Source: a virus. From it: 64,000 nt of DNA. Below the pieces are notes generated by a model that made no database searches, was not told where the DNA came from, and worked only from the letters and a program-made list of their open reading frames with translations. Of the stretch, positions 39,225-61,669 are shown in pieces. The stretch is from positions 29,509-93,508 of IMG/VR virus record IMGVR_UViG_3300049460_000123; one strand, written 5' to 3'. The first letter of the stretch is position 1. Each line of letters begins with the position of its first letter. The position numbers and the translations under genes are program-made.

Positions 39225-39579
39225 CCTCGAGGCAGCAAAGCGCGGCGAACCGATCATCACACGTAACGGCGGCATGGTCACAGAGTTTCACCACTTCAAG
39301 ACTGAAGGGTCGAAAAAGCCGTGCATCGCGATCATCGACGGAATGCCGCACTGGTTCGGAAAGGACGGCGTATGGATCGATGATGAGGATTCCGCAGAAG
39401 ATCTTTTCATGGCGCCCAAGAAGCGCACCGTCCATGTGCAGGTGTACGGTAAGGAAGGCGACTCGGACTTTCCAGGCCTGAAGGCGTACGCGTTCGAAAA
39501 CGCAGAGGACGCAAAGGAAAACATCAGGATGACAGGCTGGCCGGTGCTGGGTACGTTCGCCATCGAGATCGCCGAATAA
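39211..39579 (+). CDS. Conserved phage hypothetical protein
   Basis: MKPFNLEAAKRGEPIITRNG...DLFMAP; its stop overlaps element copy 1. Confidence 0.75.
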   Translation: MKPFNLEAAKRGEPIITRNGGMVTEFHHFKTEGSKKPCIAIIDGMPHWFGKDGVWIDDEDSAEDLFMAPKKRTVHVQVYGKEGDSDFPGLKAYAFENAEDAKENIRMTGWPVLGTFAIEIAE

Positions 39580-39672
39580 CAGACTAACAATGTTTTGAGA
39601 ACACCGCCGCCCGGCCCGCCCGGCGCGGCATCTGAAACGGTCCTGCCACGCGCGGGCGCACATAGGGCGCAA
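39578..39672 (+). repeat. Bipartite module-boundary element, copy 1
   Basis: AACAGAC-taaca-ATGTTTT; GGGCGC-acata-GGGCGCAA at offset 76. Confidence 0.8.
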
Positions 39673-39679
39673 TAGAGAC

Positions 39680-40105
39680 ATGCTGTTCGAGATCATCAAC
39701 CCAAGCGACAAATACACCATCGAGGCACCTGACCTCGAGATAGCCGCCCTCGCCGTTTGCGTACTGGGCGAAGGCAAGTATGCCCTGCAGGGAATCGACA
39801 ACACAAACGAGGTGCCTATTTTCCTGTTCGGCGGCCATGATGATTGGTTCAAGAAGAAATTTGGCCGATCGTTCGGCTACTCGCTCGAGCTCAGCGACAA
39901 GGCAAAGCTCGCGGACTGCCTGGATTCGACGCTGATCGGCGACGCCAATGACCGCAAGCAGTTCAACGCCGCGCGCACGGCCGTCTCGCCGGAAGTATTC
40001 GAGGGATGGCGCGCCGGATGGACTGGCGCACGCTGTAGCTCGCTTAACAACATCGGTCGCCGCGCCTACGCCTACGCCGAGGCACTTCGGGATCAACTCG
40101 CATGA
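39680..40105 (+). CDS. Hypothetical protein
   Basis: MLFEIINPSD.YT...SSLNNIG motif. Confidence 0.7.
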   Translation: MLFEIINPSDKYTIEAPDLEIAALAVCVLGEGKYALQGIDNTNEVPIFLFGGHDDWFKKKFGRSFGYSLELSDKAKLADCLDSTLIGDANDRKQFNAARTAVSPEVFEGWRAGWTGARCSSLNNIGRRAYAYAEALRDQLA

Positions 40106-40458
40106 GCAGATCCCTTTCCACCCAGGCACAACGCCAGCTTGGCAACTGGTTTCTGAACGGCGACACCGGCGTCTCGTCGGAGACGATGGCCGCGCTCGCA
40201 CTTGGCGCAACGAAGCGCGGCAACGGCCGCATGGATGCGCCGCACGATCCCGCCGACTTCGGCCGCTGCTACCGCCTGGTGAAAGCCGTTCCGGAGATCC
40301 GCGCACACTTCCCGCGCATCGGCCGCAAGTGCAAGACGTTCACCGGAATCCTGCACCACTGGGATGCGCTGGTGAAGATCTACGAGCGGGACAAGCCGAC
40401 AGGCGAGAGCCACGAGCTCTATCACCGCATCAAGGAACTGCGAGGCGATAAGGCATGA
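40102..40458 (+). CDS. Hypothetical protein
   Basis: W..NGDTGVSS...PHDPADFGRC motif. Confidence 0.7.
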   Translation: MSRSLSTQAQRQLGNWFLNGDTGVSSETMAALALGATKRGNGRMDAPHDPADFGRCYRLVKAVPEIRAHFPRIGRKCKTFTGILHHWDALVKIYERDKPTGESHELYHRIKELRGDKA

Positions 40459-40838
40459 AGACAGCAGAACTCGACGGCGTCCTGCTCGACTACTGGACGG
40501 CGCGCGCCGACGGTCGCACGGCCAAGATCGTACGGCCCGGCGAAAAGATCAATCGCATGATGGTCGACTGCGATACGTGCATCGCCCTCACACCGGGTTA
40601 TGCCAAATGGTGGCAACCGTTTCACGTGTACTGGGGCAGCGCCGGCCCGATCATCGAGCGCGAGAAAATCAGCATCGAGCGCATTGGCGACGACGCGACC
40701 GGCGATCGGACTGCATACGCATATACCATTGATGCGCCGCTTGACGGCCAACATGCAGACACTGCGCTGATCGCCGCGATGCGCGCATTCGTCAGCTCGA
40801 AATTCGGCGACGAAGTACCCGACGAGGTGCAATCGTGA
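40455..40838 (+). CDS. NinX-like (DUF2591) protein
   Basis: ELDG..LDYW.A.A...W..AGPIIERE.I...LIAAMRAFV.SK.GDEV. Confidence 0.75.
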   Translation: MKTAELDGVLLDYWTARADGRTAKIVRPGEKINRMMVDCDTCIALTPGYAKWWQPFHVYWGSAGPIIEREKISIERIGDDATGDRTAYAYTIDAPLDGQHADTALIAAMRAFVSSKFGDEVPDEVQS

Positions 40839-41017
40839 GCACGACCGTTTCAAAAATCGAATGGACAGACGTCGCGCTCGACGACGTCCTGCACCACTTC
40901 GCGAAAGACTTCACGTTCAAGGACGGCGCTAAACTCGTCCGCCATGAGGCATTCGTCGACACCGTCAAAGGACGTGTCGTGTTCAAACTGACGTCGCAGC
41001 CGCCGGAGGGAACGTAA
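40835..41017 (+). CDS. Hypothetical protein
   Basis: 60 aa, coupled overlaps on both sides. Confidence 0.55.
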   Translation: MSTTVSKIEWTDVALDDVLHHFAKDFTFKDGAKLVRHEAFVDTVKGRVVFKLTSQPPEGT

Positions 41018-41364
41018 TGCTGATGCCACCGGGCTTTGAACGCCTTCTGACCATCGATCCACATCCGGACTATGCCGCGCGCCGCGCCGAAGTAGGCACG
41101 CGCAATCTGTTCGCCGAGTTAGAGACCGTCCTTAACGCACGGTGCGTCGGGCACCCCATGACGCCGGAGATGATCGCCGACATGCAGGCGATCGTCGATC
41201 GAGCGCTCCTCGATGTGCGCAGTCTCGGCGAGACGCTCGTCAACGAAGACGGACGCGAGATCGTTGGCGTTCGGTTCTTCAAAGAGCCGGGATTCGGTCG
41301 TGTCGTCCTGGTGCCGCTGATTGGCGAGAGAGTCGGATTCTGGACTCCGCCAACACATACATAA
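41017..41364 (+). CDS. Hypothetical protein
   Basis: GGAGG SD; ends inside element copy 2. Confidence 0.55.
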   Translation: MLMPPGFERLLTIDPHPDYAARRAEVGTRNLFAELETVLNARCVGHPMTPEMIADMQAIVDRALLDVRSLGETLVNEDGREIVGVRFFKEPGFGRVVLVPLIGERVGFWTPPTHT

Positions 41365-41444
41365 TCTGATCGCAGTTTCCGCATCTCCATACGCCGCAGG
41401 GGTTTCCGACCTGCGGCGTTTTTCATGGGCGCTACTCGGACGCA
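41352..41444 (+). repeat. Bipartite module-boundary element, copy 2 (spacer contains a terminator)
   Basis: AACACAT-acata-ATCTGAT; GGGCGC-tactc-GGACGCA at offset 75. Confidence 0.7.
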
Positions 41445-41453
41445 CGCGAAATT

Positions 41454-41491
41454 TGCTCAAATTTGAGTTGTTTTTTAATCATTTTTGAGTA
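41454..41491. promoter_or_regulatory. Tandem early operators
   Basis: TGCTCA-aatt-TGAGTT and TAATCA-tttt-TGAGTA, starts 22 bp apart. Confidence 0.7.
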
Positions 41492-41527
41492 ATACTGCGT
41501 GCGCGTAACTTAACCCGAGAGAGAACC

Positions 41528-46009: not shown

Positions 46010-46386
46010 CCGTCTACGTCGACGACATGAACGCCGCGTACGGCCGCATGAAGATGTGCCACATGCTTGCCGATTCCGACGAGGAGCTGCACGCGATGGC
46101 CGATCGGATCGGCGTCGCGCGGAAGTGGTGGCAAAGCCCTGCAAAAACGAGCGGCAGTCACTACGACATCGCGCTGAGCAAGAAGGCGCTCGCGATCGCC
46201 GCCGGCGCCGTCGAGATCACCTGGCGCCAGGCCGGCGCGATGAACACCCGGCGCCGCGTTACTGGCGAGCTTGGAGATCCGGCAGACGCGTGCGAATGGT
46301 CGCTCGCATTTTGGGCGAGGCGCCGGCGCGAGCGTGCGGAGGAGGCGGCGCGAGTCAACGGCCTATTCGTCGCGCCAACAGATTGA
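46006..46386 (+). CDS. DUF4031 protein
   Basis: MTVYVDD...MCHMLADS.EELH.MA..IG...W.Q...HYDI. Confidence 0.85.
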   Translation: MTVYVDDMNAAYGRMKMCHMLADSDEELHAMADRIGVARKWWQSPAKTSGSHYDIALSKKALAIAAGAVEITWRQAGAMNTRRRVTGELGDPADACEWSLAFWARRRRERAEEAARVNGLFVAPTD

Positions 46387-46471
46387 TCATCTTTTAGCAA
46401 TTTTACGGAACGCACCGCCCGGCGTGGCATTACCAAAAAATGATCGGGCCGCCGGGCGCAGGTAGGGCGCA
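46377..46471 (+). repeat. Bipartite module-boundary element, copy 3
   Basis: AACAGAT-tgatc-ATCTTTT; GGGCGC-aggta-GGGCGCA at offset 77. Confidence 0.8.
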
Positions 46472-46489
46472 CCGTCCAAACACACGCAT

Positions 46490-46520
46490 GTACATCGGTA
46501 CATAGGCACATAGGTACATA
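46490..46520. repeat. 8-bp GTACATAG-like tandem repeats (centromere-like, cluster 1)
   Basis: gtacatcg gtacatag gcacatag gtacata. Confidence 0.55.
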
Positions 46521-47257
46521 TGAACGAACATCCAATTCTTTTCAATCGCGAGATGATCCTCGCGCTGCACGCCGGCCGCAAGACGCAGACGCGCCGAATC
46601 GTGAATCCGGCCCCGATCGCCGATGATCGTTTTATTGGAGGCTACAAGATCGCCATGCCGAAAAGTCGGTACACGGGTATGCAGACGGGAGGCGAGATAT
46701 CTGTAGAAGCGGCATATGTCCACACATGCTGTCCGTACGGCTCTCCCGGCGATCGTCTATGGGTACGCGAAGCCTGGCGCGTCAGTCACAAGCACGACTA
46801 CCTTGCGCCGCGCGACCTGCCGTTCGAGCGCGGAATGACGATCATGTATGGCGCCGGCGGATCCCGTGCTCACAACGCCGCCGGCGAGTATGTCAACGAT
46901 CCGTGCTATCCGCTCACGCTACCCGCTTGGGCCGGGAAAGGCCGCCCGTCGATCCACATGCCGCGCGCCGCGTCGCGCACCACGCTCGAAATTACCGGAG
47001 TGCGCGTCGAACGACTGCAGGATATCAGCGAGGCGGACGCAGAGAAGGAAGGCGTGAATCGACTCGCGAACGGCTCGCCCTACTGGCGTAACTACGTAAC
47101 AAGCCGGCCCGACCACGGCACGTATGACTACACCTGCCTTAGCGCGCGCGAGTCGTTCTCGACGCTTTGGGATAGCATCAACGAGGCGCGTGGGTTCGGC
47201 TGGGAAACGAACCCCTGGCTTTGGGTGGTCGACTTCAGCTCGTACCGAGGTACATAG
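46520..47257 (+). CDS. ASCH/PUA-like phage protein
   Basis: PILFN..MI.AL..GRKTQTRR...GDRLWVRE...PSIHMPR.ASR..LEIT.VRVERLQDIS. Confidence 0.8.
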   Translation: MNEHPILFNREMILALHAGRKTQTRRIVNPAPIADDRFIGGYKIAMPKSRYTGMQTGGEISVEAAYVHTCCPYGSPGDRLWVREAWRVSHKHDYLAPRDLPFERGMTIMYGAGGSRAHNAAGEYVNDPCYPLTLPAWAGKGRPSIHMPRAASRTTLEITGVRVERLQDISEADAEKEGVNRLANGSPYWRNYVTSRPDHGTYDYTCLSARESFSTLWDSINEARGFGWETNPWLWVVDFSSYRGT

Positions 47258-47410
47258 GTACACAGGTACATAGGCACGCTCGTACATACCTGCACACACA
47301 CGTCCGTACCTGCACACACACGTGCATCCATAGGTGCGGACGTTTCTACGTGCGCGCGCACACACCTGCACACCCACAAACCGATGTATGATCCGACGCA
47401 CCTACATACG
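47242..47410. repeat. Centromere-like (parS/parH) repeats upstream of parA
   Basis: GTACATAG/GTACACAG tandems and ACCTGCACAC repeats, as expected for a type Ib partition site. Confidence 0.6.
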
Positions 47411-47419
47411 GAGGTGTCA

Positions 47420-48136
47420 ATGTCACGGATCATAACAATCGGCATGAAGAAAGGCGGACCCGGCAAGACGACGATCGCGACGAACATCGCGGCAATGTGC
47501 GTCACCGCCGGCATGAGGACGTTGCTGGTCGACACGGACGGGCAGCGCACGGCGGCGAGCTGGGCCGGATCCCGGCGAGAGCAGGGCGTCGAGCCGCCGA
47601 TTACCTGCGTCGAAAAGACGGGTAAATGCGGCCGCGATATCGCCGAGCTCGCCGACAATTACGACGTCGTCATCGTCGACGCCGGCGGCCACGACAGCAT
47701 AGAGCTCCGCCAGGCGTTCGCCGTCGCGGACCTATGCATCATGCCGCTTCGGCCATGCCAGCCGGACGTCTGGACTCTGCCGGACATGATCGAGCTGATC
47801 AACGAGATCGAGGAAAAATCCGGCACGCGCCCGCGCGCATCCGTGCTGATCAATGGCAAGGAAGCGCCGCGCAAGGTGAGGGGAGGGTACCGCGAGACCC
47901 AGGACACGCGCGACACCGTCGACTCGATCCGCGAGACATTCGGCGACGCCGTTCCCGTCCTTGGATCGATGGTTTCCTATCGCCCGGCATTCTGGCGCGC
48001 GTTCCCCGCCGGAATGAGCGTCGTCGAGTTGCCCGATTCGGCCCGCGCCGAGAGCGCCAAGGAAGAACTGATGAACCTTTTCAAGGAGATTTTCGATGTC
48101 GAATACTCGACCGTCGATCAGCGTCGCGCAGCCTAA
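47420..48136 (+). CDS. parA: ParA partition ATPase (type Ib)
   Basis: Deviant Walker A KGGPGKTT, LVDTDGQ, YDVVIVDAGG; GGAGG SD before ATG 47420. Confidence 0.92.
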   Translation: MSRIITIGMKKGGPGKTTIATNIAAMCVTAGMRTLLVDTDGQRTAASWAGSRREQGVEPPITCVEKTGKCGRDIAELADNYDVVIVDAGGHDSIELRQAFAVADLCIMPLRPCQPDVWTLPDMIELINEIEEKSGTRPRASVLINGKEAPRKVRGGYRETQDTRDTVDSIRETFGDAVPVLGSMVSYRPAFWRAFPAGMSVVELPDSARAESAKEELMNLFKEIFDVEYSTVDQRRAA

Positions 48137-48461
48137 GACACTTTCCGCCGAGGAGCGCGCGGCCCGCCTCGATAAGGTATCAGCATGGAGTGAAGCGCCG
48201 GCACGCGAGGCACTGGGCGAGAGTAGGGCGCCCGCCGATCAGAAACCGCCGCCAGCGCCCGCGCGCGAGGAGCATAGGCACATGGTAGCCGCGCCGGCCG
48301 CGACGCCGCCAAAATCGATGCACGTGCGTATGCCGATCGATACCTACGAGATGCTCCGCGATATCGCGCACGTGACGCGTGAGCACATGAACGACATCAT
48401 CGCTCGAGCGACGCTGAAGGAATGCCGCCGGATCCGCGAGGCGCTCGAGAAAGGGAAGTAG
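48096..48461 (+). CDS. Ribbon-helix-helix centromere-binding protein (ParG-like)
   Basis: Disordered N-terminus plus KSMHVRMPIDTYEMLRDIA...MNDII; AAGGAG SD. Confidence 0.75.
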   Translation: MSNTRPSISVAQPKTLSAEERAARLDKVSAWSEAPAREALGESRAPADQKPPPAPAREEHRHMVAAPAATPPKSMHVRMPIDTYEMLRDIAHVTREHMNDIIARATLKECRRIREALEKGK

Positions 48462-48490
48462 GGCGGGCAGACCGCCACCTTGCAAAACCG

Positions 48491-48819
48491 AATTGGGAGG
48501 ATTCCCGGGTTGATCTGCGCGAGGGTTTTCCACAAGACTCTCGCGCGTAGTTTGTAGACGTTTGTTAACCGTTTGTATACGTCTCAGACCCTTACCAGGC
48601 GTGGCTTTGCGGGACGCTATTGGGAGGAAAGCCGGGTCAATTGGGAGGCGGACCGGGCCAATTGGGAGGGCGGCCGGGTTCCAATTGGGAGAAAAGCCGG
48701 TTCATCTCGTGTTGTCCACAGCTCGCACCCGGAAATCCTCCCAGTGACACCGATCGACAGGGGATGATAAATTGTTCCCTCCCAGTCGGCCCGCGTTTAA
48801 CCCGGAAATCCTCCCATAT
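48491..48819. repeat. Plasmid origin: iterons, DnaA-like boxes, AT-rich repeats
   Basis: Direct iterons WATTGGGAGR-N4/5-CCGG at 48491, 48618, 48639, 48660, 48683; inverted copies at 48727 and 48799; TTTTCCACA 48526, TTGTCCACA 48712; GTTTGT x3. Confidence 0.88.
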
Positions 48820-49558
48820 GAAACTCAAATATGCGCAGACAGGCTTGAACCTGGTCGACCGGCACGTGACGATGCACAACGACTTGCTTGTGGCGTCGCA
48901 CGGACTGAAGACGCTCGCCGAGCAACGCATCGTGAAGTCGTGCGCAGCAAAGATCGATTCGGTGCGCCTAGACGGCAACCGGTACCGCGTCCGACTGACT
49001 GCACAGGAATACGCCGAGACTTTCAACCTCGACACGACGACGGCATACGAGCAACTGAAGTCCGGTTGCGAGTCGTTGGCCGAGCGCTGGATTGTCTGGT
49101 CCGAGCCAGTGCAGCGCGGCGCCGTAGCCGTCCACCGCGACCGCTGGGTGAGCGGCGCAACGTATGTCGACAAAGCCGGCTGGATCGAGCTCAGATTCTC
49201 GCCGGAGGCGACACCGTATCTCATGGTCCTGCGCGGCAACCACACGACCTACCTGCTACGCCAGGCGGCCGAGCTGCGATCGATCTACTCATGGCGGATG
49301 CTCGAGCTCCTGATGCAGTTCAAAGACACTGGATGGCGCCAGATGCAGATCAAGGACTTCCTGCATGCGATGGACGCGAAACCGAGCCACCTGCAGAACT
49401 TCAAAGACGCCCGCCGGCAGATTATCGAAGTTGCCGTGAAGGAATTGCAGGACAAAGACGGATGGATCATCACGTGGACGCCGATCAAGACCGGCCGGAA
49501 GGTTACTGATATCCGGTTTGAATTCAGCCGGAACCCGCAAGGCACGCTCGCGCTATGA
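48818..49558 (+). CDS. repA: Plasmid replication initiator (Rep_3 family)
   Basis: N.L..ASH.L.TLAEQRI...AY..LK...LRSIYSWRMLELLMQFK..G..AV.EL...K.GRKV..I.F. Confidence 0.9.
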   Translation: MKLKYAQTGLNLVDRHVTMHNDLLVASHGLKTLAEQRIVKSCAAKIDSVRLDGNRYRVRLTAQEYAETFNLDTTTAYEQLKSGCESLAERWIVWSEPVQRGAVAVHRDRWVSGATYVDKAGWIELRFSPEATPYLMVLRGNHTTYLLRQAAELRSIYSWRMLELLMQFKDTGWRQMQIKDFLHAMDAKPSHLQNFKDARRQIIEVAVKELQDKDGWIITWTPIKTGRKVTDIRFEFSRNPQGTLAL

Positions 49559-49648: not shown

Positions 49649-49659
49649 CTGGAATTCAG

Positions 49660-50532: not shown

Positions 50533-50627
50533 AACAGATCATAGATCTGTCGCGTCTATCGCCAAAAGCAAAGCCCGGCAAGCGTCTCCGCTGTCGGGCT
50601 TTTTTCATGGGCGCGCATAGGGCGCAA
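50533..50627 (+). repeat. Bipartite module-boundary element, copy 4 (spacer contains a terminator)
   Basis: AACAGAT-catag-ATCTGTC; GGGCGC-gcata-GGGCGCAA at offset 76. Confidence 0.8.
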
Positions 50628-51350: not shown

Positions 51351-51356
51351 CCGCGC

Positions 51357-51575: not shown

Positions 51576-51650
51576 AGTGTGTCGACTCGGAGAACCGTCA
51601 CGTAGCGCTGCGCGCGCCTGCGAGACATACGTCAGTCTGAGTCGACACGC

Positions 51651-51782: not shown

Positions 51783-51816
51783 AAAGGTCTCTCGCATACT
51801 CCCCGTATTGCGATTC

Positions 51817-51844
51817 AGGGCGCCCTAACCGGCGCCCTTTTTTT
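51817..51844 (+). terminator. Intrinsic terminator of the RNA locus
   Basis: AGGGCGCC-ctaacc-GGCGCCCT-TTTTTT. Confidence 0.85.
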
Positions 51845-51846
51845 CG

Positions 51847-52185
51847 TCAAGCGATCACGCCGGCGGCGATAGCCGACCACAGTACTTTGCACGCGAAGTG
51901 GATCGCCTGATCCGTCCGCAGACCGATCCGATTGTCACACTTGAGAAAGTCCGTCACCGCATGGACGATCGCCTCCGCCACGCCGAGCACGATCGAGCCC
52001 GTGAACAGCGCGACGAACCCGGCATGCACCATCGAATGCGCGAACAGCGCGTGAGGCCAAAAGATCTTTCCGAGTGGCGTGTTTCGGTTCTTACCATTGG
52101 CGAGAAAATCGCCCTGAAGCGGGTAGTCGGCGAGCGAATGGCCGACAACGAGCCAGAACAGGATCGTGAGGAACGCGACGGTCAT
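51847..52185 (-). CDS. DUF3307 membrane protein
   Basis: GHSLADYPLQ...HS.VH...HAVTD..K...DQAIH. Confidence 0.85.
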   Translation of the reverse strand: MTVAFLTILFWLVVGHSLADYPLQGDFLANGKNRNTPLGKIFWPHALFAHSMVHAGFVALFTGSIVLGVAEAIVHAVTDFLKCDNRIGLRTDQAIHFACKVLWSAIAAGVIA

Positions 52186-52382
52186 AGCGCGATCGCCTCG
52201 CGGATCCGCGTGCACACAGTCGCCGGACCATCCAGGATGATGTCGTGCACATCCTCGCGCGTGGCAGAGTCGAGCTCGTTGAATGCTAAAGCCTCCTCAT
52301 CGCCGAGGACAAGCGGGCCATTGGTGCGGAGCACCAGGAAGGAATTGACCGCGCCCTCGAGCGCGTATCGGTGAAAACGCAT
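52182..52382 (-). CDS. Hypothetical protein
   Basis: GGAG SD; late promoter variant at 52417. Confidence 0.55.
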   Translation of the reverse strand: MRFHRYALEGAVNSFLVLRTNGPLVLGDEEALAFNELDSATREDVHDIILDGPATVCTRIREAIAL

Positions 52383-52417
52383 GATGGAGTCTCCATTAAG
52401 ATGGCTCCATCATGTCG

Positions 52418-52771
52418 TCACGATTCCGCGCACGGCTCCCAAACTTTCACGCCCGCGTTGCGCGCCTGCGCGATCATGTCGGCCGTGCCGGATCCGCCAG
52501 GAAAAGCTGCGACGCCATCGGGTTTCCACTCCTCGAGCATGCGCATGTTGCGCAGCGGCCCGGCGCGCTTGCCGTGCTTCTTCCATTCGGCCGGCACAGC
52601 CAGGCACGGCACCTCGTTCAGCCGCGCCCACGCGCCGGCCAGTGTATCGGCACCGGTTGCGCCCCCGTGAATGACGAGCATGATCGGCCGCTTGGCGTGC
52701 GCGCGATCGAGCGCTGCATACACCGCGTCGACGTCGCGATAGTCGCGGCCGCCGCAGACGAGTAGCTTCAC
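52418..52771 (-). CDS. YspA/SLOG-family protein (DUF2493)
   Basis: LLVCGGRDY...IHGGATGAD...W..HGKRAGPLRN..ML...AFPGGSGT. Confidence 0.88.
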   Translation of the reverse strand: MKLLVCGGRDYRDVDAVYAALDRAHAKRPIMLVIHGGATGADTLAGAWARLNEVPCLAVPAEWKKHGKRAGPLRNMRMLEEWKPDGVAAFPGGSGTADMIAQARNAGVKVWEPCAES

Positions 52772-53133
52772 GCGCGGCGACGCTTATCTATGGCGTTGAG
52801 CACGGACTCGCGGTTGCACGTCGAGCAGGCGCCTGGCCCGCTACACCTCATTCGAGCACCATCGGCGCGCGGTCGCACATGCCCGTGTCCGTTCTCCCAG
52901 TCGTAATTATCCTCGAAGCCCTCGAACAGATCGCCCGTCGACTTGACCGGATCCAGACCCTTGAACGGGTTCGGCGCGATCGGCTTCTTCGCCGGAGCCG
53001 GAAACAGCACCATCTGGTGATCGTTCAGTTTCGCGCGCTTGACGCGGTTGTCCGAGTGCGGTTTGACTACGACGCCGTCCTTGCGCGTGTAGCCCTGAAC
53101 CATCGACTTGAGGAGGAGGAAAATTTTCGTCAT
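52768..53133 (-). CDS. Small late protein, probably capsid-internal
   Basis: MTKIFLLLKS, GYTRKDG.VVKPH; leaderless late promoter. Confidence 0.7.
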   Translation of the reverse strand: MTKIFLLLKSMVQGYTRKDGVVVKPHSDNRVKRAKLNDHQMVLFPAPAKKPIAPNPFKGLDPVKSTGDLFEGFEDNYDWENGHGHVRPRADGARMRCSGPGACSTCNRESVLNAIDKRRRA

Positions 53134-53176
53134 GCGCTCATTTTCGCGTCACGACGCGCGGCGCCAGAATGCCGCT

Positions 53177-53272
53177 AACAGACTCGAAGTGTGTTGCAGG
53201 CACGCCGCAAACCAGCGCCCAGCATAACGGCGCCGTGCTGGCCGCCGCGCGCCGGGCGCTGATCGGGCGCAA
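53177..53272 (+). repeat. Bipartite module-boundary element, copy 5
   Basis: AACAGAC-tcgaa-GTGTGTT; GGGCGC-tgatc-GGGCGCAA at offset 77. Confidence 0.85.
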
Positions 53273-55387
53273 TTAGTTGTAGTAAAGCGGAACGAGCGCC
53301 ACCGCATCCGCGACGACATACCCAGTCGTCCCCGTGTTGCCCACAACCACCTTATTGTTCGCCGGATCGTTCGCCGTGAATGCATAGGTTCCGATCAGCT
53401 TCCATGCGCCGGAGTTGATCTGGTTGACGTTCACCGCCGCCTGCGCGACGCCGGCCGCCGTCACCGTATGCGGAACTGCACCCGAGCGCGTCGAGCTCTC
53501 CGGAAAGAACGCATAGGCGCCATACGTGCCGGCCTTGGCGAGCGCGAAACGAAACTCTACCGAGCACGTCCCTTTGTTCGTCGCATTGTCCGACAGGTAA
53601 GTCGGCCCGTAGATCGACGACTCTGCAAACGTGCTGAGTGTCTGCACCTCTTGCCATGCGCCCGCGACGACTATCTGTCCATTGCCGGCGGCATCGACAT
53701 ACGTGCCTACAACGTTGCCGCCCGGCGGAATGTCGAGCACGGCCGCGCCAGGCGGGAAATAACCCATGCTTTCCCGGATCTTGTACGGATCGACCGCCTG
53801 CACCGTCGACGCGAGATCGATCGCGCGGGCAGCGGCGAAGCCTGCAATCTCGCCGAGCTGCATGGCGATCGGCTCGACGCGGATCGATGCGAACGCGGCA
53901 TGCGACGCCGACACCGCGAAAGTGACGAGCAGGTTCGTGCACTCAGTCACTTTCGGGCACAGCGCCCTATAGCTGATCCAGTACCGACCATCCTGGCCGC
54001 CGCTCGCTGTCTTCTGGAAGAACCCGCCCTCGAGCGCGATGAATCCGTTGTAGACGACCGTTTGGCAATGGTGCGAGTCCATCGCATAGAAGCCGATCGC
54101 GACGCCGTCCGTTACCGGATCGATGCGCTGGCAATGACGATCGGTCATGACAAAATCGCCGATCATGCGGCGTCCCTCTCGCACGTAGAGCTGCTTGGGC
54201 AGTCCGTGCCGAGTCTGCATCTGCAGATATGGCGGAAGGCCGAACCCGGCAAGCGTCGTCTTGATCGCGGCCGGCACGCGCGAGTCTTCGCGCAGGAACT
54301 TGAACAGGCCCAGCGTCCAGTCGACGTGCTGCTGATAAATCGCCTCGCGTTCAGCATACGTCGCAGTCGGCCATGCGTCGGCGCCGCCGATAAAGTCGAG
54401 CTGCTGCAGCGCTGAGCCCGCATTCAGATCGGTCACGCCGTCTTTGCACAGGTGATCGTTAAACAGGCCCGGCGGATTGGAGTTGTCACTCCATGCCGTG
54501 ATCTGACCCGCCGCGAACTGACGACCCAGGATCTCGTAATTGAGCGCGCTATAGTGCGTCGGCTCCGGGAATCGGCGGAAGGTGCCCGGGCCGCCGCTCG
54601 TCGAAACCACGTTGACGCGGAACCCGTACGCCTGGACGCGATCGTCGCCGGTTCCGACGGCCGCGACCGTTGCATTCACACCCGGCAGCAGGCCGGACGA
54701 CGGAACGGCCGCCGTGATATACGGATCCACCTGCCACGCGCCGGCCTTGTTGTAGGGAGTGACGACGCCGTTATAGGTCTCGTTGTACTGACTGTTCGGC
54801 TCGCGTCCGACCGCGAACGAGCAGCCGGCGGCCGCCATAAGATCGCCCTCATAGCTTGCATCGATGTACACCTTCGCCGTCACCGTCAATTGCGGCGCGA
54901 CCAGCGGCGTCAATGAATCCTCGAACGTCACCGCGCTAATCTCCGCGCCGGATTTCTTCACGGCAGACGGGATAACGCGGTAGTTATTGCGGACCGTGAT
55001 CCGGTTCGTCGACAGCAGTGCCGTGAGCTGGGCAACCATCGCTTTAGGCGACGCGTTCAGACTTTGCCCCCAAAACGTCGGGTAGTCCGTCACGCTGGCG
55101 GAATAGTTCGAGCTCCATATCGCCCGGTAGAGCGCATTGGCGAGCCCCTTCACGACGTTGCAGTCGCCGCCAGCTCGATCGGTGTAACTCAGGCCGCCTT
55201 GTGCCGGCATGCCGCCGAAAATCGTATCCGGATTGATCAGCTCGACCGTCTTTCCGTTCTGCGCGGCCGATATCGCCGCCAGTATCCCGCTGCACGTCGC
55301 GCCATAGACGCAGACGTCAACATTGCTCGTCGCATAGAGCGAATCGGCCTGGTGCCGAGCCAATCCCGGCGCGTCAAGAATTCCCAT
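53273..55387 (-). CDS. FAD-dependent oxidoreductase with C-terminal golvesin/xanthan-lyase-CBM-like domain
   Basis: DVCVYGATCSG..AA..AA..G, YIDASYEGDLMAAAG...GRE, YVREGRRMIG, MDSH, SASHAAFASIRVEP; C-terminal W..IGTY.F...VVADAV. Start trimmed to MGILDAPG. Confidence 0.85.
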   Translation of the reverse strand: MGILDAPGLARHQADSLYATSNVDVCVYGATCSGILAAISAAQNGKTVELINPDTIFGGMPAQGGLSYTDRAGGDCNVVKGLANALYRAIWSSNYSASVTDYPTFWGQSLNASPKAMVAQLTALLSTNRITVRNNYRVIPSAVKKSGAEISAVTFEDSLTPLVAPQLTVTAKVYIDASYEGDLMAAAGCSFAVGREPNSQYNETYNGVVTPYNKAGAWQVDPYITAAVPSSGLLPGVNATVAAVGTGDDRVQAYGFRVNVVSTSGGPGTFRRFPEPTHYSALNYEILGRQFAAGQITAWSDNSNPPGLFNDHLCKDGVTDLNAGSALQQLDFIGGADAWPTATYAEREAIYQQHVDWTLGLFKFLREDSRVPAAIKTTLAGFGLPPYLQMQTRHGLPKQLYVREGRRMIGDFVMTDRHCQRIDPVTDGVAIGFYAMDSHHCQTVVYNGFIALEGGFFQKTASGGQDGRYWISYRALCPKVTECTNLLVTFAVSASHAAFASIRVEPIAMQLGEIAGFAAARAIDLASTVQAVDPYKIRESMGYFPPGAAVLDIPPGGNVVGTYVDAAGNGQIVVAGAWQEVQTLSTFAESSIYGPTYLSDNATNKGTCSVEFRFALAKAGTYGAYAFFPESSTRSGAVPHTVTAAGVAQAAVNVNQINSGAWKLIGTYAFTANDPANNKVVVGNTGTTGYVVADAVALVPLYYN

Positions 55388-55395
55388 TTTGTTCC

Positions 55396-55782
55396 TTATA
55401 CGATGGTGATAGCGGGCTGCGCAGTCACCGCGCCGTTGACGTCGCGCGTAACCGCGAGTTGCGTGAGAGTTTTTGCGGGCGGCCCGGCATACGTCGCATG
55501 CCATGCGTTGATCGCACCGCTCGCAGGGTCTTGCGCATCCGTGACGTAGGTGCCGGGCGTCCCATCCGGCCAAACGATGCTTGCGGACAAAAGCACGCCG
55601 TTCGCGTCGCGCGTGCCCGAAACGAGTTGCCCGAAGTTGCCGGCGTACGCCCAGCCGAGAAGCGCCTGAACGATGTTCCCGACCGGCGAGAATTTGCGGA
55701 TCTCATCGAGCGCTTCGTTAGCCCTTGCGGCCGCCGCGAACGCTTGAGCTAACGAGCTCTGACTGATATCAAGTGTGGTCAT
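55396..55782 (-). CDS. Putative virion adaptor protein
   Basis: TRDANG....A.IVWPDG.PG.Y...TQ.AVTRD.NGAV motif; late promoter. Confidence 0.6.
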   Translation of the reverse strand: MTTLDISQSSLAQAFAAAARANEALDEIRKFSPVGNIVQALLGWAYAGNFGQLVSGTRDANGVLLSASIVWPDGTPGTYVTDAQDPASGAINAWHATYAGPPAKTLTQLAVTRDVNGAVTAQPAITIV

Positions 55783-55826
55783 GCGCAACCTTTCGTAGTG
55801 GTTACTGAATGGTCACGTCACGACTC

Positions 55827-55920
55827 AACAGACAAGAAGTCTGTTAGCAGAATGTCCGAATAGCCCTAGATATAAGGCTGCGCACGACACAGCGGAATGT
55901 GCCGGGCGCAGCTTGGGCGC
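55827..55920 (+). repeat. Bipartite module-boundary element, copy 6
   Basis: Perfect arms AACAGAC-aagaa-GTCTGTT; GGGCGC-agctt-GGGCGC at offset 77. Confidence 0.85.
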
Positions 55921-57962
55921 TAGTAAGACCGCTCGACGAACAAGATGCAGCCGGGCGATGCCGCGCGCGTGAGCATGCCGCGCTCCTCGCAGTTGCCCGT
56001 GTCTGCATCGAACGACACACAGCGGCCGCACCGCTCGCCATCCGGCAGCGCCTCGAATATCTGCGCGACCGCCGGCGGCATGCCGACCTGTTTCGCCACC
56101 TCGACGAGATCCTTGTGCGGGTTTGCTTCCGGCATGATGAATGTGCTTGTCCCGTGAGCGCGCGACCAGGCCACGTCGCAAAGCATGTTTGCATACGAAA
56201 AGTGCGGATCGATACCGACCTTCTTGACCGACCGCTTGTACGCGTTGGTCTCCTCGTCTTTCTCCGCAACCAGCGCCGTCTTCGTGAAGTGGTGGAACGC
56301 GCGCGGCAGCACGGCGGCCGTCTTCATCACGCCCTTGTCCATCACCTCCTGAATGAGCCCCTGCGGATCCGGAAACAGGCACGTCGCCGAGGTAATGCGC
56401 GCCATCGACACCTGCATGCACTTGTACTGATCCATGCGCAGCGTGTAGCGATCGCGCGCCTCCTCGTCGGTCCGCCGCTCCGACACGTCGAGCTTGGGCG
56501 CGTCGCCCCACTGGATCATCCCCTCCTTGACCGAGCCGAAGCTATCGCAGATGAACACCCGGCCCGGATGCCGCGTCGCGAATTTCTTCGCGTCGTTGTA
56601 GTTCGGGTTGATTTCAACCACGCATACGTCGACGCCGTACAGATCCATGAGCTCAGACGAGCGCGCGAACGGATCCGCGCCATAGGTCTCCTCGACGTGA
56701 ATCGTCGCCTGACGGCCGTCCGGCATACGCTCCTTGATCACGTGCACGTTGAAGTTACCCATTTGGTCAATACCCATGTAGGTATGACGCGCGCGCGACT
56801 TCCATACGACGCCGGCTTTTTTGCCCTCCTCGACGCAGTTCGCGCAGTGCTCGAGCGTCACCGGCACCTGCGATGGATCGAGGTATGGCTTGCCGAGCTT
56901 CCGGTTGAAAAAGTTTTTCATGTCCGTCGCCGAGTTGAACGCGTCCATGATTTCGCCGGCCGCGATCGTTGGCGAGAGGAATTGGGGAAAGTGAATCGAG
57001 CGGATCCGCAGCGGCCGCTCCTTCTTCTCGATCGTGTAGTCGATCGGCTTGTCGGCCGCCGGGTTGTCCGCGATCCACTCGCCGCGCTGCGTATCGGTGA
57101 TCCAGTGCCCATTGCGGCACACGTACCGATAGCGCTCCTTCTCCGAGTCCCACTTGATGCAGTTCGGCCAGTACGAGTCGAGCGGCGCGCGATCGGCGCA
57201 CGTCGGGCATTCCGTATGGAACTGGTATTGCGATCCGCGTTTGTACCAGTAATGGATGTCAGCATCCGGCCAGTTCGCCGTCGAGCCCATCAGCGTGAAA
57301 CGCACTGGCGACGCAGACAGACGCTCGATCGTCTTTTCCATCTGCTCGAGCGTCATCTCCTGTACCTCGTCGAACGACAAAATGTCCATTGGGACAGATT
57401 CAGTCGTCGCGCGTCCGGACGTCCACGAAAAGATGAACAGCGCCTCAGCAATCCGGCGCCGGTTGACGTTGCCCTCGCCCGTCTTACGGCCAGAGCCGTC
57501 GGCCGCGTCCTGCGTCATGAGCTCGTGCACGGACGGCACCGAGCGCACGATCGGCATGAATCGTTCTGTCGACTTCAGACCGGCCAGGTTCATATCCGGC
57601 AGGAACATGCCGACCGTCGCCGGGCCGAAGCGGATCCCGAGATAGATCGTCGCCAACATCTCCATCACCGTGAAACCCACCTGCGCGCACTTCATCAGGA
57701 CGAGCACCAAGCGATAGGCCTCGTCTTCCGTGCTGGGCACCTGGTCATAGATCCATGCCATCGCCGGACGGTCGTCGAGCTGGAACGGTTTGCCGTCGAC
57801 CTTCAGGCCATCGCGCCCGAGCTGCAGGCACCATTCCTTGAACGTCACGCCTTCGGCGATCTTGGTTTTCTCGATCCGGAATCCAGTCTTCGCCTCGAGG
57901 CGCGCGATCAGGCCCGCCAGCGAAGGGAGCCCATCCCGCTTTGACATTCTCGATCGCGCCAT
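55920..57962 (-). CDS. terL: Terminase large subunit (GpA-like)
   Basis: MKCAQVGFT, ILSFDEVQEM, MGST, YMGIDQMG, DPHFSYAN. Confidence 0.9.
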   Translation of the reverse strand: MARSRMSKRDGLPSLAGLIARLEAKTGFRIEKTKIAEGVTFKEWCLQLGRDGLKVDGKPFQLDDRPAMAWIYDQVPSTEDEAYRLVLVLMKCAQVGFTVMEMLATIYLGIRFGPATVGMFLPDMNLAGLKSTERFMPIVRSVPSVHELMTQDAADGSGRKTGEGNVNRRRIAEALFIFSWTSGRATTESVPMDILSFDEVQEMTLEQMEKTIERLSASPVRFTLMGSTANWPDADIHYWYKRGSQYQFHTECPTCADRAPLDSYWPNCIKWDSEKERYRYVCRNGHWITDTQRGEWIADNPAADKPIDYTIEKKERPLRIRSIHFPQFLSPTIAAGEIMDAFNSATDMKNFFNRKLGKPYLDPSQVPVTLEHCANCVEEGKKAGVVWKSRARHTYMGIDQMGNFNVHVIKERMPDGRQATIHVEETYGADPFARSSELMDLYGVDVCVVEINPNYNDAKKFATRHPGRVFICDSFGSVKEGMIQWGDAPKLDVSERRTDEEARDRYTLRMDQYKCMQVSMARITSATCLFPDPQGLIQEVMDKGVMKTAAVLPRAFHHFTKTALVAEKDEETNAYKRSVKKVGIDPHFSYANMLCDVAWSRAHGTSTFIMPEANPHKDLVEVAKQVGMPPAVAQIFEALPDGERCGRCVSFDADTGNCEERGMLTRAASPGCILFVERSY

Positions 57963-58621
57963 CAGCCGATCCGCGCGTTGACGTTGAAACCGATCGCGTC
58001 GTTCGCATTGCGCATGCGGACCAGAATCGACTGCTGCACTTCAGGACTGACCTTGCCGATCTCCTCGACGACGACCCGGAACAGCTCCTCCATCTGCTCG
58101 AGACCGAACAGGAATTCCTGCGACCGGATGTAGGTGTCCATCATGTCGCGCTTTTTGCCGACGACCTTGTCCAGCAACATCGGGTTGACGAGGCGCTCCT
58201 TTCCGTCCGCGTCAGCCTTGACCGCCGCCGAGCGCAGCAAAGCGATGTCCGCCAGGATCTCGTAGAAAAACGCAATGAAGTTGAAAGTCTGCTGCACGGC
58301 GCCCGGCGGCAGCGCGGCGATGATCGCCGGAGACGGCGCTACAGGAAGTTGTGCCTTGAGCTTTTTTTCCGTCACCTCCGGCGACAGCTCGACGCTCGAG
58401 CGGATCCGCTTCTGTGCGAGTTGCAGCGCGAGCGTGCCGTGCTCGGATGCGACATCCTCGAATCCGTCCTTGGCTTCTTTGATCCAGCGGAAGAACGTCG
58501 CGCGGGAGACCGCCGGAAACTTGGCGAACAGTTCGGCGTAATTCGAGGTGCCGTGAATGCTGAGGTGCTCAGCGATCGCCCGCATTACTTCGGGCTTTTG
58601 GTCTTCTTTCGGTCGTGCCAT
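57962..58621 (-). CDS. Terminase small subunit (putative)
   Basis: N-terminal HTH (VSRATFFRWI); TGATG-coupled to terL; late promoter. Confidence 0.65.
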   Translation of the reverse strand: MARPKEDQKPEVMRAIAEHLSIHGTSNYAELFAKFPAVSRATFFRWIKEAKDGFEDVASEHGTLALQLAQKRIRSSVELSPEVTEKKLKAQLPVAPSPAIIAALPPGAVQQTFNFIAFFYEILADIALLRSAAVKADADGKERLVNPMLLDKVVGKKRDMMDTYIRSQEFLFGLEQMEELFRVVVEEIGKVSPEVQQSILVRMRNANDAIGFNVNARIG

Positions 58622-58697
58622 TGACGATGCTCAGAGTGCGATAAGGTATCAGTGTGGTATCACGACTGATACCGAGTATCGACACTCAGTCTCACCA

Positions 58698-58779
58698 TGC
58701 GCCCGAGTAGCGCCCTATGGCGGAAAACTGACGCGGAACCCTTGTCAGGCTTGGTCCCGCATCAGATCCCTAATCTGTT
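58698..58779 (-). repeat. Bipartite module-boundary element, copy 7 (short spacer)
   Basis: Minus strand AACAGAT-taggg-ATCTGAT; GGGCGC-tactc-GGGCGCA at offset 64. Confidence 0.75.
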
Positions 58780-59732: not shown

Positions 59733-60022
59733 GGCGCCACCGATGCGGCGAGATCGTAGGCCGAGCCGATCGGCGCAACCAGCAGCGCGCCATCCTCGCC
59801 GAGCAGCGGCGCGGGCACCGGGCGGACTGCGTCGCCGTAAAGGCCCCCGGGCGGGATCAGCGTGTTGCCCTTGATCTCGAAATCGACCGTCATGCCGGCC
59901 CGGTTCGTCGGGTGGATGTAGAAACGCACGCTGCCGTCGGAAACGGACGCGCGCAGCGAAAAGTCGATTGCGCCGCTATTCGCGAGCTCGTCGCGCAGGT
60001 ATTGCTCGAGGGTTTGACTCAT
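59729..60022 (-). CDS. Hypothetical protein
   Basis: IDFSLRA...FYIHP....G.T.DF...GN.L; GGAG SD. Confidence 0.65.
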   Translation of the reverse strand: MSQTLEQYLRDELANSGAIDFSLRASVSDGSVRFYIHPTNRAGMTVDFEIKGNTLIPPGGLYGDAVRPVPAPLLGEDGALLVAPIGSAYDLAASVAP

Positions 60023-60558
60023 GGGTTCTCCGTTGCCGGCCGATCGTTGGCCGCCTTGACCATCTGCTTTAAACTCCCGTGCCAAGCGCCATAGCGCTCG
60101 ACTTCGGAAACGAATGCGACGACGTCGTGCTCGACCAGGCCATAGACCGGCAGACCGTCGCGATCGAACTTCGGTGCGTCATACGCGTCTTTCTCTTGCT
60201 TGATATGCGCCAGCTCGTGCCACAGCAGCGCCTCGCGCTCGTGCTCGCTGGCGCCTTTCCAGAACTCGTGATCCAGGGTGATGATGAAACGCGGCATTGC
60301 GCCGAAGAACGACCGGAGGAGCATCTCGAACAGGTCTTTCAGGTGCCCTTGCACCTTTGGCTCGTGCACCATGCCGAGGATCTGCTTGCCGCCCTTGAGC
60401 TTGACCTCAGTCTTGAACAGGTACTCGATATGCACCTCGTTCTCTTTCAGGTGCTTGTGCTCGTCCTGCAGCATGTGCCGCTCAGCGATGATCGCCGGAT
60501 GCAACTCCCCTTCCGGGACGAGGTACGGCTCGAAATATTCGATGTCGCTCATCGGCAC
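60019..60558 (-). CDS. Putative phage metallopeptidase
   Basis: ALLWHELAH...HDV..F...V.RYG.W; start could be 60552. Confidence 0.8.
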   Translation of the reverse strand: MPMSDIEYFEPYLVPEGELHPAIIAERHMLQDEHKHLKENEVHIEYLFKTEVKLKGGKQILGMVHEPKVQGHLKDLFEMLLRSFFGAMPRFIITLDHEFWKGASEHEREALLWHELAHIKQEKDAYDAPKFDRDGLPVYGLVEHDVVAFVSEVERYGAWHGSLKQMVKAANDRPATENP

Positions 60559-60653
60559 GCCATCCGGCCGTATGCGTAGATCGCGCCGAGCACGAACGAG
60601 ACAACGGCGGCCGCTTGGACCGCAGCGATCAACCAGTCGAATAATTTGCCCAT
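60549..60653 (-). CDS. 34-aa membrane peptide
   Basis: GGAGG SD after the late promoter at 60687. Confidence 0.45.
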   Translation of the reverse strand: MGKLFDWLIAAVQAAAVVSFVLGAIYAYGRMACR

Positions 60654-60687
60654 TGCCTGCACCTCCGCTATGCAGGCAATGATCACG

Positions 60688-61050
60688 TCACGACCGCATG
60701 CCGACATCCCAATCTGTCGCCGCCTCGAGATCCTCGAGGGAGGCTTGCCGCAGTGAGACGACCGGCGACTTGCCGTAGACCGCTTTCCACGCGAGCTCGA
60801 ACGCATCCAGATCGCCCGGCGCATTCGCCACCATCGGCGCGACAATGGGCCGCCGGTTCCGTATGCACTCGCGCACCTCCGACAGGCCGCGATAGTGCCG
60901 GCCGCTTGCGAAAGCCTCGAGGTGATCGAGCGCCGTGCATACATCCGGAAACTCCGCCATCCAGCGCCGGACTTGTCTGCACTCGACACGCCAGCGCTCG
61001 AGCTCCGCCACCTCGCGCCCGGCCACGAGACGCCGCAGCCAGCCGATCAT
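60688..61050 (-). CDS. Hypothetical protein
   Basis: WLRRLVAGRE..EL.RW...WMAEF. Confidence 0.55.
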   Translation of the reverse strand: MIGWLRRLVAGREVAELERWRVECRQVRRWMAEFPDVCTALDHLEAFASGRHYRGLSEVRECIRNRRPIVAPMVANAPGDLDAFELAWKAVYGKSPVVSLRQASLEDLEAATDWDVGMRS

Positions 61051-61177
61051 GCCGGCCGCCGCTTGACGTACACCTCGACCGGCCCGAGCTCGATCACAGC
61101 CTGCCCGCGCGGCGCGCGCCAGATCCCGAAGCGCCAGCACGACAGGTCGCACCAGACGAGTTTGAGAGTGCGGCCCT

Positions 61178-61558
61178 TCATGCCGGCACCGCCGCGCTAC
61201 TGACTGACAGGCAGTCCGCCTTGATCCGCACCGTTCCGTCGGTCAAGATCATCACCTCCGCGCCGGTTGCGGCGATCGTCGGCGCCGACGCGGCGCGCAG
61301 GTGATCGATTTCCATCTTGAGCGCGCCCTGCGTCATCTGGAGGATTTGGATCTCGAAGGATTTGCGCGCTAACTCAGCCTCGAGCGCGGCCGCGCGTTGC
61401 GCCGGCTCGCTTGCCCGCCCTTCTGCACAGCGCAGGAGTTCGCGCACAGTGTCTGCCTCCGCGACTGCCTCACGCAGCACATCGCGGCGGACGATCAACA
61501 TCGTATGCAACGGCTCATTGTCGAGGTGCGCGCGGATATGCTCGATTGCTTGACCCAT
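61178..61558 (-). CDS. Hypothetical coiled-coil protein
   Basis: AAGGGAG SD directly after element copy 8. Confidence 0.6.
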   Translation of the reverse strand: MGQAIEHIRAHLDNEPLHTMLIVRRDVLREAVAEADTVRELLRCAEGRASEPAQRAAALEAELARKSFEIQILQMTQGALKMEIDHLRAASAPTIAATGAEVMILTDGTVRIKADCLSVSSAAVPA

Positions 61559-61575
61559 CTGAAATCTCCCTTACA

Positions 61576-61669
61576 TGCGCCCGATCAGCGCCCGGCGACG
61601 GCGTGAAACTCAGGAAACCCGCTCCACGTATGGGCGCGCGGGGAATGTGAAACAGATCTACTGTCTGTT
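61576..61669 (-). repeat. Bipartite module-boundary element, copy 8
   Basis: Minus strand AACAGAC-agtag-ATCTGTT; GGGCGC-tgatc-GGGCGCA at offset 76. Confidence 0.85.

Follow-up and report, generated by a model that had tools for sequence, protein, structure and literature searches.

Nine dispersed bipartite sites in a P1-sized phage-plasmid as candidate orphan attachment-like sites of its own tyrosine integrase

Introduction

Why does a phage repeat one two-part DNA motif at the borders of its genes, and which protein reads it? The question is raised by a 64,000-nucleotide stretch of the 93,508-bp virus record IMGVR_UViG_3300049460_000123 (genome G000), which corresponds to bases 29509-93508 of that record and is referred to below as the window. 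Each copy of the motif combines an imperfect palindrome, the dyad (AACAGAY-N5-RTCTGTT), with a spacer in helical register and a direct repeat, GGGCGC-N5-GGGCGC(A). Site coordinates follow window numbering unless marked 'genome'. A sequence-only reading of the window had described eight such sites, had taken them for core-plus-arm sites of a recombinase encoded elsewhere, and had proposed that they serve the swapping of gene modules.

G000 is a P1-sized phage-plasmid that encodes portal, tail and terminase proteins, ParA, a Rep3 initiator and large polyvalent proteins. Among its relatives, Dolphis and Jeremy, two myophages of Pseudomonas putida, are the best characterised. As a close relative we used G006c20, a 95-kb contig of a Paraburkholderia assembly with about 77% DNA identity to G000 and an identical order of sites. 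Comparison of such genomes establishes the anatomy and conservation of the sites, their link to an integrase and, with true attachment (att) regions as the reference, the arm-site identity of the repeat. As far as sequence comparison can tell, the chance is about even (roughly 0.5) that the nine elements we count in G000 are orphan attachment-like sites of the phage's own heterobivalent tyrosine integrase.

Results

Integrase and sites occur together

A tyrosine recombinase with an arm-binding domain, predicted to be absent from the window, is indeed encoded elsewhere in the genome. The gene lies at genome 23631-24803 (L069:3631-4803); its product matches Phage_integrase (5.4e-18) and Arm-DNA-bind_3 (4.1e-15) in Pfam and has the catalytic R, HxxR and Y residues. 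Judged by its DUF4102/Arm-DNA-bind_3 N-domain, it is a predicted heterobivalent integrase of the P4/SXT type, DUF4102 being the arm-binding domain of the IntSXT/P4 group (PMC8138268). No second protein with an arm-binding fold was found by tblastn, and a sequence search of the integrase against PDB gave no match. The gene is intact and under purifying selection, with a ratio of non-synonymous to synonymous substitution rates (dN/dS) of about 0.13 between G000 and G006c20 and about 0.16 for the catalytic part, and neither of these two genomes has an att site beside it. An integrase that is kept under purifying selection with no adjoining att site must have a job.

Among the phage integrases compared, the N-domain is 52-88% identical, whereas the remainder of the protein, with its core-binding and catalytic parts, separates into two clades with 19-25% mutual identity. 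The integrases are domain mosaics, in which one conserved arm-binding N-domain is joined to either catalytic clade, and similarity of the N-domain does not track the catalytic clade.

Integrase and sites co-occur perfectly across 20 related genomes, as the sequence-only reading would expect of the recombinase concerned; 12 genomes carry both together. Among nine complete relatives chosen by terL alone, eight had neither integrase nor sites and one had both, in a search that included a positive control. The dyad pattern gave 3 chance hits in 371 kb of integrase-less relatives, against 5.7 expected. Of all genes and open frames of G000, the integrase and a likely endolysin alone match this profile, being present in site-bearing genomes and absent from four integrase-less ones, and the integrase is the sole regulatory or DNA-handling gene that does so. 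When mapped on a tree of terL, genomes with and without the pair are intermingled, requiring four changes on the best tree and three to four on bootstrap trees; the well-supported branches alone require only one change. Since the sites are found only in relatives with this integrase, they are most likely its extra docking or recombination sites, placed where swappable accessory genes adjoin.

The repeat as a probable arm-type site

In relatives with a true att site beside the integrase gene (Dolphis, Geminicoccus, L125 with tRNA-Leu, L127, L128 and L135), a tRNA or tRNA fragment is flanked by GGGCGC pairs, often in the form of the exact 18-mer GGGCGCAGGTCGGGCGCA. The attP of Dolphis, which is unannotated (L009:40100-40570), adjoins the integrase gene gp42 and holds a tRNA 3' fragment (T-arm, acceptor and CCA, 40293-40327) flanked by five GGGCGC pairs at 40144, 40390, 40420 and 40539-40551. 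In Geminicoccus, the tRNA fragment is followed by four GCGCCC boxes, among them the 18-mer of Dolphis in exact reverse complement, and a further pair stands directly before the ATG of int. The presumed arm sequence occurs in G000 solely at the nine sites, and no GGGCGC pairs were found with integrases of less than 50% N-domain identity.

The invariance of the repeat mirrors the conserved N-domain of the integrase. Very probably, this subfamily of integrases uses the repeat as its arm-type site, and binding of the repeat by the integrase can be regarded as likely.

The chromosome of the alphaproteobacterium Geminicoccus harenae also holds an integrated relative of the site-bearing phage family; a canonical bipartite site (L115:730-822) lies 24 kb from the att junction (L071:2740-3000), with the GTCGTGAC late-promoter motif nearby.

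Distribution, spacing and polarity of the sites

A scan of the whole replicon and of its relatives extended the original set of eight sites. It revealed a ninth copy outside the window at genome 568-661(-), with its repeat at 568-584(-) and its own dyad 77 bp upstream, and it showed that the bipartite unit is widespread among myophages of about 90 kb that form a large family. One member is Pseudomonas phage Dolphis, whose seven sites lie at 67.5-83.6 kb. The extra copies number 2-12 per genome and are distant from the integrase gene. When viral contigs were scanned for the pattern, the two-part unit turned up in many that look unrelated, with the same spacer length and different spacer sequences.

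The spacing falls into two classes one helical turn apart, as seen in more than 100 sites. Of 59 distinct sites collected from relatives, 53 have 74-77 bp between dyad start and repeat start, and the other 6 have 64-66 bp; among 50 further sites near terL, scanned at 62-68 and 73-79 bp only, 38 have 75-77 bp and 12 have 64-66 bp. The dyad core common to the family is CWGAY-N5-RTCWG.

We rejected a host intergenic repeat of the repetitive extragenic palindromic (REP) or bacterial interspersed mosaic element (BIME) kind, which would have spoken against the recombination idea from the outset. The Paraburkholderia assembly has 15 exact repeats, of which 7 belong to the 95-kb phage contig and the 8 others are spread over 8.1 Mb, where a control pattern gave 5 hits. 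Dispersed partition centromeres in the style of N15 were likewise dismissed: Dolphis has the sites, its annotation lists no ParA or Rep, and the ParA of G000 has no match in Dolphis.

Polarity is strikingly uniform. In 80 relatives, 48 of 50 distinct sites within 10 kb of terL are directed towards this gene (30 upstream sites are co-directional with terL, 18 downstream sites face its 3' end, and 2 are exceptions), and five further genomes agree with the rule. The repeat lies directly against the stop codon of terL in several relatives. The direction is kept despite reversed flanking genes, as at sites 5 and 6 of G000, which lie between minus-strand late genes (numbering as in Table 1), and at the Dolphis site before mazEF. 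A polarity that is independent of gene direction is what insertion by site-specific recombination would lead one to expect, and is less expected of a transcription signal.

The most integron-like layout was seen in G013 (IMGVR_UViG_3300044694_000083), where seven sites occupy 9 kb (64782-73939), some of them 0.8-0.9 kb apart, all on one strand and beginning at the terL stop.

The dyad and its possible readers

With inverted arms and a 5-7-bp centre, the dyad has a geometry that would suit a core-type site, and it is lost together with the integrase. Its left half is much better conserved than its right half: between orthologous sites of G000 and the close relative, 0 of 49 bases have changed in the left half and 10 of 49 in the right half, compared with 84 of 401 in the spacer and 1 of 35 in the centre. 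In this closest pair, the contrast between 1 of 35 central bases and 21% of spacer bases would suit the idea that the dyad centre holds an 'address code'. The case for such a code is weak, since centre and spacer diverge alike when more distant pairs are compared. A dyad-like element occurs once in the arms of a true attP, in Dolphis, where it has a different spacing and is not conserved in L135. Spacers show a weak A+T periodicity of about 9.5 bp beside a stronger 7.5-bp peak, which we did not use as evidence.

A host factor that acts only within integrase complexes would be an equally good reader of the dyad. It is also conceivable that the boxes are read by other proteins altogether, a phage or host regulator on the dyad and another factor on the repeat, and that the link to the integrase is indirect. 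The dyad is common to both catalytic clades and resembles a dimer operator, with an AT-rich centre, half-sites that drift together within a genome, and no base-pair covariation (the counts for Y7/R13 are T-A 21, C-G 11, C-A 12 and T-G 11). Yet the repeat clusters around true att cores, the dyad disappears along with the integrase, and apart from the likely endolysin no other G000 gene has a matching presence/absence profile. We therefore consider this explanation improbable.

A DNA element rather than an RNA or promoter signal

We conclude that the element acts as DNA, not RNA. Beyond trivial GCGC pairing the sites have no consensus fold, and Rfam gave no match at them. Spacers fold slightly better than shuffled sequences (mean z -1.8), the sense strand no better than its complement, and a true terminator, whose position varies, is present in about one spacer in three. 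A structured RNA or nut-like hairpin was accordingly rejected, as covariation in the dyad, a consensus fold, a sense-strand advantage and an Rfam match were all missing.

A promoter fares no better. By eye, the GG-N10-GC spacing within the repeat fits a -24/-12 promoter, for which the dyad, centred about 93 bp upstream, could be an activator site, and spacer hairpins could make the unit a promoter-terminator cassette. However, a ribosome-binding site (RBS) and ATG follow 4-24 nt after the repeat at most sites, which rules out a promoter that starts transcription downstream of the repeat: a start 10 nt downstream would remove the RBS. At several sites the RBS even lies inside the would-be -9 to +1 stretch, and the same repeats are found as att arms around tRNA cores; the sigma-54 promoter with an activator dyad was dropped for these reasons. 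No sigma-70 consensus was found at the promoter position of the sites, and the scan total was at chance (5, with 5.7 expected). Late promoters are found outside the sites: the motif GTCGTGAY-N3-A-N3-T occurs 16 times in the window (595-63373), always on the minus strand and with 0.3 expected, and copies stand beside sites 5, 6 and 7. Whether as sigma-54-like promoter, promoter-terminator cassette or structured RNA, a transcription or RNA signal is thus a very improbable explanation of the sites.

Homology breaks in the site region

The region that holds the sites is hyperplastic. Only 41% of its DNA aligns with the close relative, compared with 80% elsewhere, and few of its genes are common to more distant relatives. 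Homology breaks are about five-fold enriched near the edges of the boxes (8 of 46, with 1.6 expected), and several sites form islands of homology between unrelated genes; site 1, for instance, is retained in G006c20, L036 and G004 although the genes on both sides differ.

Breaks coincide with the outer dyad edge at 41348 (site 2, where homology with G006c20 begins at the left edge), at 50529 (site 4, which at 50529-50630 is itself the sole local homology with G006c20) and at 61671 (site 8, where homology with both L039 and G006c20 ends). Another lies right after the dyad at 53196, where homology with G006c20 stops at site 5. At site 7 of G006c20, the repeat and the terS side are homologous, whereas spacer, dyad and upstream DNA have been replaced. 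In the comparison with L039, one replacement extends from the dyad edge to the middle of a gene.

The 416-aa gene at 61671-62973 encodes a C-terminal PAPS-reductase part that is unique to G000; only its first 60-90 residues are common to L039 and the Paraburkholderia relative, and the replaced segment ends at the dyad of site 8.

Anatomy and surroundings of the sites in G000

All eight sites first described in the window are present at their coordinates and on their strands (Table 1), and the reported spacing was confirmed, seven copies having 75-77 bp and the remaining one 64 bp; with the ninth copy, eight of the nine fall into the longer class, the short one being that at 58779. Allowing at most one mismatch, the dyad pattern has 6 matches in the window, compared with 0.00 in 100 shuffles. 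Two copies depart further from the pattern, that at 39578 in its right half (ATGTTTT) and that at 41352 in its left half (AACACAT). GGGCGC-N5-GGGCGC is exact in seven window copies, and the copy at 41427 has one mismatch (GGACGC); the whole genome holds 8 exact repeats and none of the reversed control pattern.

Table 1. Bipartite sites in the window
Site	Coordinates	Strand	Dyad	Repeat	Remarks
1	39578..39671	+	39578-39596	39654-39670 plus A	
2	41352..41444	+	41352-41370 (AACACAT...)	41427-41443	one mismatch in repeat
3	46377..46471	+	46377-46395	46454-46470 plus A	
4	50533..50626	+	50533-50551	50609-50625 plus A	
5	53177..53271	+	53177-53195	53254-53270 plus A	
6	55827..55920	+	55827-55845	55904-55920	perfect dyad; directed into terL 3' end
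7	58699..58779	-	58761-58779	58699-58715	short class (64 bp)
8	61577..61669	-	61651-61669	61577-61593 plus A	perfect dyad

The contacts between sites and genes had also been described correctly. The TAA of an adjoining gene overlaps the dyad at 39577, 58780 and 61670, and minus-strand stop codons abut the repeat at the far end of the site at 53273 and 55920. Genes ending at 41364 and 46386 have their stop codons within the dyad.

At site 1, where the overlapping TAA belongs to the upstream gene, an RBS and ATG begin 9 nt past the repeat. The spacer of site 2 holds an intrinsic terminator, that of site 4 a strong one, and an operator-like AT-rich repeat region lies downstream of site 2. The stop codon within the dyad of site 3 is that of a DUF4031 gene, and GTACATAGG iterons and the ParA/Rep3 block follow downstream. 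Site 5 has minus-strand genes on both sides and a late promoter just outside, at 53140-53155(-). At site 6, the terL stop overlaps the final base of the repeat and a late promoter (55809-55824(-)) abuts the dyad; a similar layout, with the repeat 3-15 bp from the end of the terL match, is found in at least four relatives. Downstream of site 7 lies the late promoter of the presumed terS, at 58651-58666(-).

The intervals between sites had been described as coherent functional units. We could verify ParA and Rep3 in 46377-50533, the Proteo-phage-1 RNA in 50533-53177 and an FAD oxidoreductase in 53177-55827. For 55827-58779, terL was confirmed, and terS is presumed, without a family match. The Rfam match to Proteo-phage-1 (51089-51166, 53.8 bits) lies between sites 4 and 5, where about 1.2 kb of DNA is poor in genes.

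GTACATAGG-type tandem iterons are located at 46480-46515, after site 3 and upstream of a 245-aa gene and parA, and occur also in L036; a partition centromere and an operator are the candidate functions. An operator-like inverted repeat of the TTTTTGAGTAA / CTCAAATTTGAG type is present at 41445-41500, after site 2, and again at L069:4850-4895, directly after the integrase gene; it is probably an immunity repressor site.

A 179-aa protein encoded at 60019-60558 (-) is labelled 'transposase' in PHROGs (phrog_513). Its Pfam match to PhageMetallopep (4e-27) suggests that this label is wrong, and a REP-associated tyrosine transposase (RAYT) or IS200-type transposase was dropped as a candidate for the same reason.

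The genome ends (1-127 and 93382-93508) form a 'direct terminal repeat' of exactly 127 bp, across which L039 is continuous. As 127 bp is a common maximum k-mer of assemblers, the repeat may have arisen as an overlap in the assembly and not mark a physical end, and G000 may be circular or permuted.

Discussion

If the integrase acts at these sites, two of its N-domains would bind the tandem GGGCGC-N5-GGGCGC(A) pair as an arm-type site, and the DNA between pair and dyad would keep its helical register, with a length of about 76 bp or one turn shorter, which would allow the arm-bound complex to reach the dyad, whose centre is 67-78 bp away. The dyad would be contacted by the core-binding and catalytic domains of the integrase or by a host factor. 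Each site has its own central sequence and could therefore pair productively only with an identical copy. Such a copy might be offered by a sister or dimer molecule, by a terminal redundancy, or by a co-infecting relative at the corresponding locus. The sites would thereby become fixed crossover points at the borders of accessory cassettes, and the uniform polarity of the array would be explained.

That the sites are real recombination substrates is a tentative proposal, with the odds leaning somewhat against it. We consider it doubtful that this family of P1-sized temperate myophages and phage-plasmids has gone as far as an integron-like platform built on a lambda-type arm-binding integrase. 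In such a platform a miniature att site with an 'address' at each cassette border would let co-infecting relatives exchange cassettes, or capture them from one another, by address and independently of homology, and dimers would be resolved as well.

Several observations weigh against the sites being attachment-like sites of the integrase. The genomes behind the co-occurrence data are related by descent, and resolution of the terL tree is poor. The same dyad core, CWGAY-N5-RTCWG, goes with both catalytic clades in spite of their 19-25% identity, its outer-base flavour does not track the clade, and it is unlike the tRNA cores of true att sites, so that core recognition by the integrase is doubtful; of the core-plus-arm idea, the arm half has found support in the GGGCGC pairs around true att cores, and the dyad is a candidate core. 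The spacers have no IHF consensus above background (with at most one mismatch, 3 of 59 sites against 1.6 in shuffles; with at most two, 19 against 16.3). Central sequences vary between sites, which would block site-to-site exchange by a homology-dependent recombinase.

The breaks in homology add to these objections. Most of them (38 of 46) lie in the region away from the sites, and others fall after the repeat, at 39682 and 50630, or between repeat and spacer, at 58717. Given breaks at the repeat edge and mostly off-site, strand exchange at the dyad is unproven; no breakpoint could be placed in a palindrome centre, and the invariance of the left half prevents breaks from being located inside it. 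Replaced units are mostly single genes next to a site rather than blocks from site to site, and we found neither a recombination product nor a hybrid site nor a cassette that had moved. The idea of module swapping is supported by the hyperplastic accessory region and the enrichment of breaks at the boxes; the off-site majority and the single-gene units speak against it. Ordinary homologous recombination on short conserved boxes also fits the break pattern, which is equally compatible with exchange by the integrase plus a second, ordinary crossover.

From here it is a short step to an unlikely but serious alternative: the integrase may bind the sites without strand exchange, as architectural or insulating elements or as polar roadblocks around terminators, functional solely in phages with the integrase, while the mosaics arise by homologous recombination on the 17-19-bp conserved boxes through the phage's own recombination genes. 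Such genes are at hand, as G000 also encodes a PDDEXK-like (DUF3799) protein, an SMC/RecF-type ATPase and SSB. This view would account for breaks at both outer edges and the repeat edge and not just at the dyad, for swapped genes that mostly sit by a site with a conserved gene on its other side, for the frequent terminator hairpins in spacers, and for the co-orientation of nearly all sites with neighbouring early genes; moreover, there is precedent for an integrase that acts as a regulator by way of arm-type sites beside the gene that encodes it (PMC2951348). It is at odds with sites 5 and 6 and the Dolphis site before mazEF, which oppose the local genes, with integrase-less relatives that do without any such element, and with purifying selection on the catalytic domain in phage-plasmids that have no att site.

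Phage mosaicism is usually ascribed to homologous or illegitimate recombination. Should the sites prove to be orphan attachment-like sites at which the integrase exchanges strands, site-specific, integrase-driven exchange of accessory genes would be a new mechanism in tailed phages, and it would explain why phage-plasmids that no longer integrate retain an integrase. Even without exchange, multiple orphan arm-site modules would represent a new job for a heterobivalent integrase. Our results furthermore supply a sequence-defined arm-type site (GGGCGC-N5-GGGCGCA) for one DUF4102 subfamily. Direct testing is possible, because the isolated phage Dolphis of Pseudomonas putida has both seven sites and a true attP.

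Comparison with known systems

The literature that we searched contains no description of such orphan sites, of GGGCGC arm sites or of Dolphis. The Start-Associated Sequences (SAS) and Extended SAS (ESAS) of Cluster K mycobacteriophages (PMC3203893) are likewise bipartite and intergenic, with an imperfect inverted repeat whose left half is better kept, a variable spacer and then a short conserved box before start codons, and nearly all have one orientation. Their function is unknown, and no integrase or arm-site link has been reported for ESAS (PMC3203893). They differ from the present sites in sequence and host, and two of the sites described here oppose the local genes. The promoter early stem-loop (PeSL) cassettes of T4-type phages (PMC2839356, PMC4122927) share the short conserved intergenic position in hyperplastic regions, the stem-loops and the shuffling junctions; they consist of a sigma-70 promoter and a terminator and recombine by homology, whereas the sites in G000 have no promoter and are tied to an integrase.

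In the lambda-type attL/attP intasome, a heterobivalent integrase binds core and arm-type sites (PMC9791396; for the classes of arm-binding domains, PMC8138268). In common with it, the phage described here has an integrase with an arm-binding domain encoded by the same element, tandem direct-repeat arm sites with an 11-bp period, and, about 70 bp away at a helically phased distance, a dyad with short inverted arms and a 5-7-bp centre. The same repeats flank true att cores in relatives of G000. In contrast to lambda-type sites, the elements described here occur in 2-12 extra copies distant from the integrase gene, have no IHF consensus and no known partner site, and possess a dyad that is unlike tRNA cores and common to two unrelated catalytic clades.

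In integron cassette arrays, IntI acts on attC sites, which are folded as single strands and recognised by their structure. The phage arrays resemble them in having a site at each cassette border, a uniform polarity despite a few reversed cassettes, variable cargo and one tyrosine recombinase. They differ in that the integrase is of the arm-binding type and not an IntI, that the sites lack the signature of folded single strands, and that no cassette was found to have moved with its site.

P1 itself uses Cre/lox for cyclisation and dimer resolution, and as a phage-plasmid needs this site-specific recombinase for its plasmid life. A precedent for integrase work beyond integration is IntS/TorI of KplE1, where the integrase acts as a regulator at arm sites (PMC2951348). 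P1 thus illustrates the need of a phage-plasmid of this size for a recombinase, and KplE1 a further use of an integrase; each of them relies on one locus, whereas G000 has nine dispersed sites whose central sequences differ.

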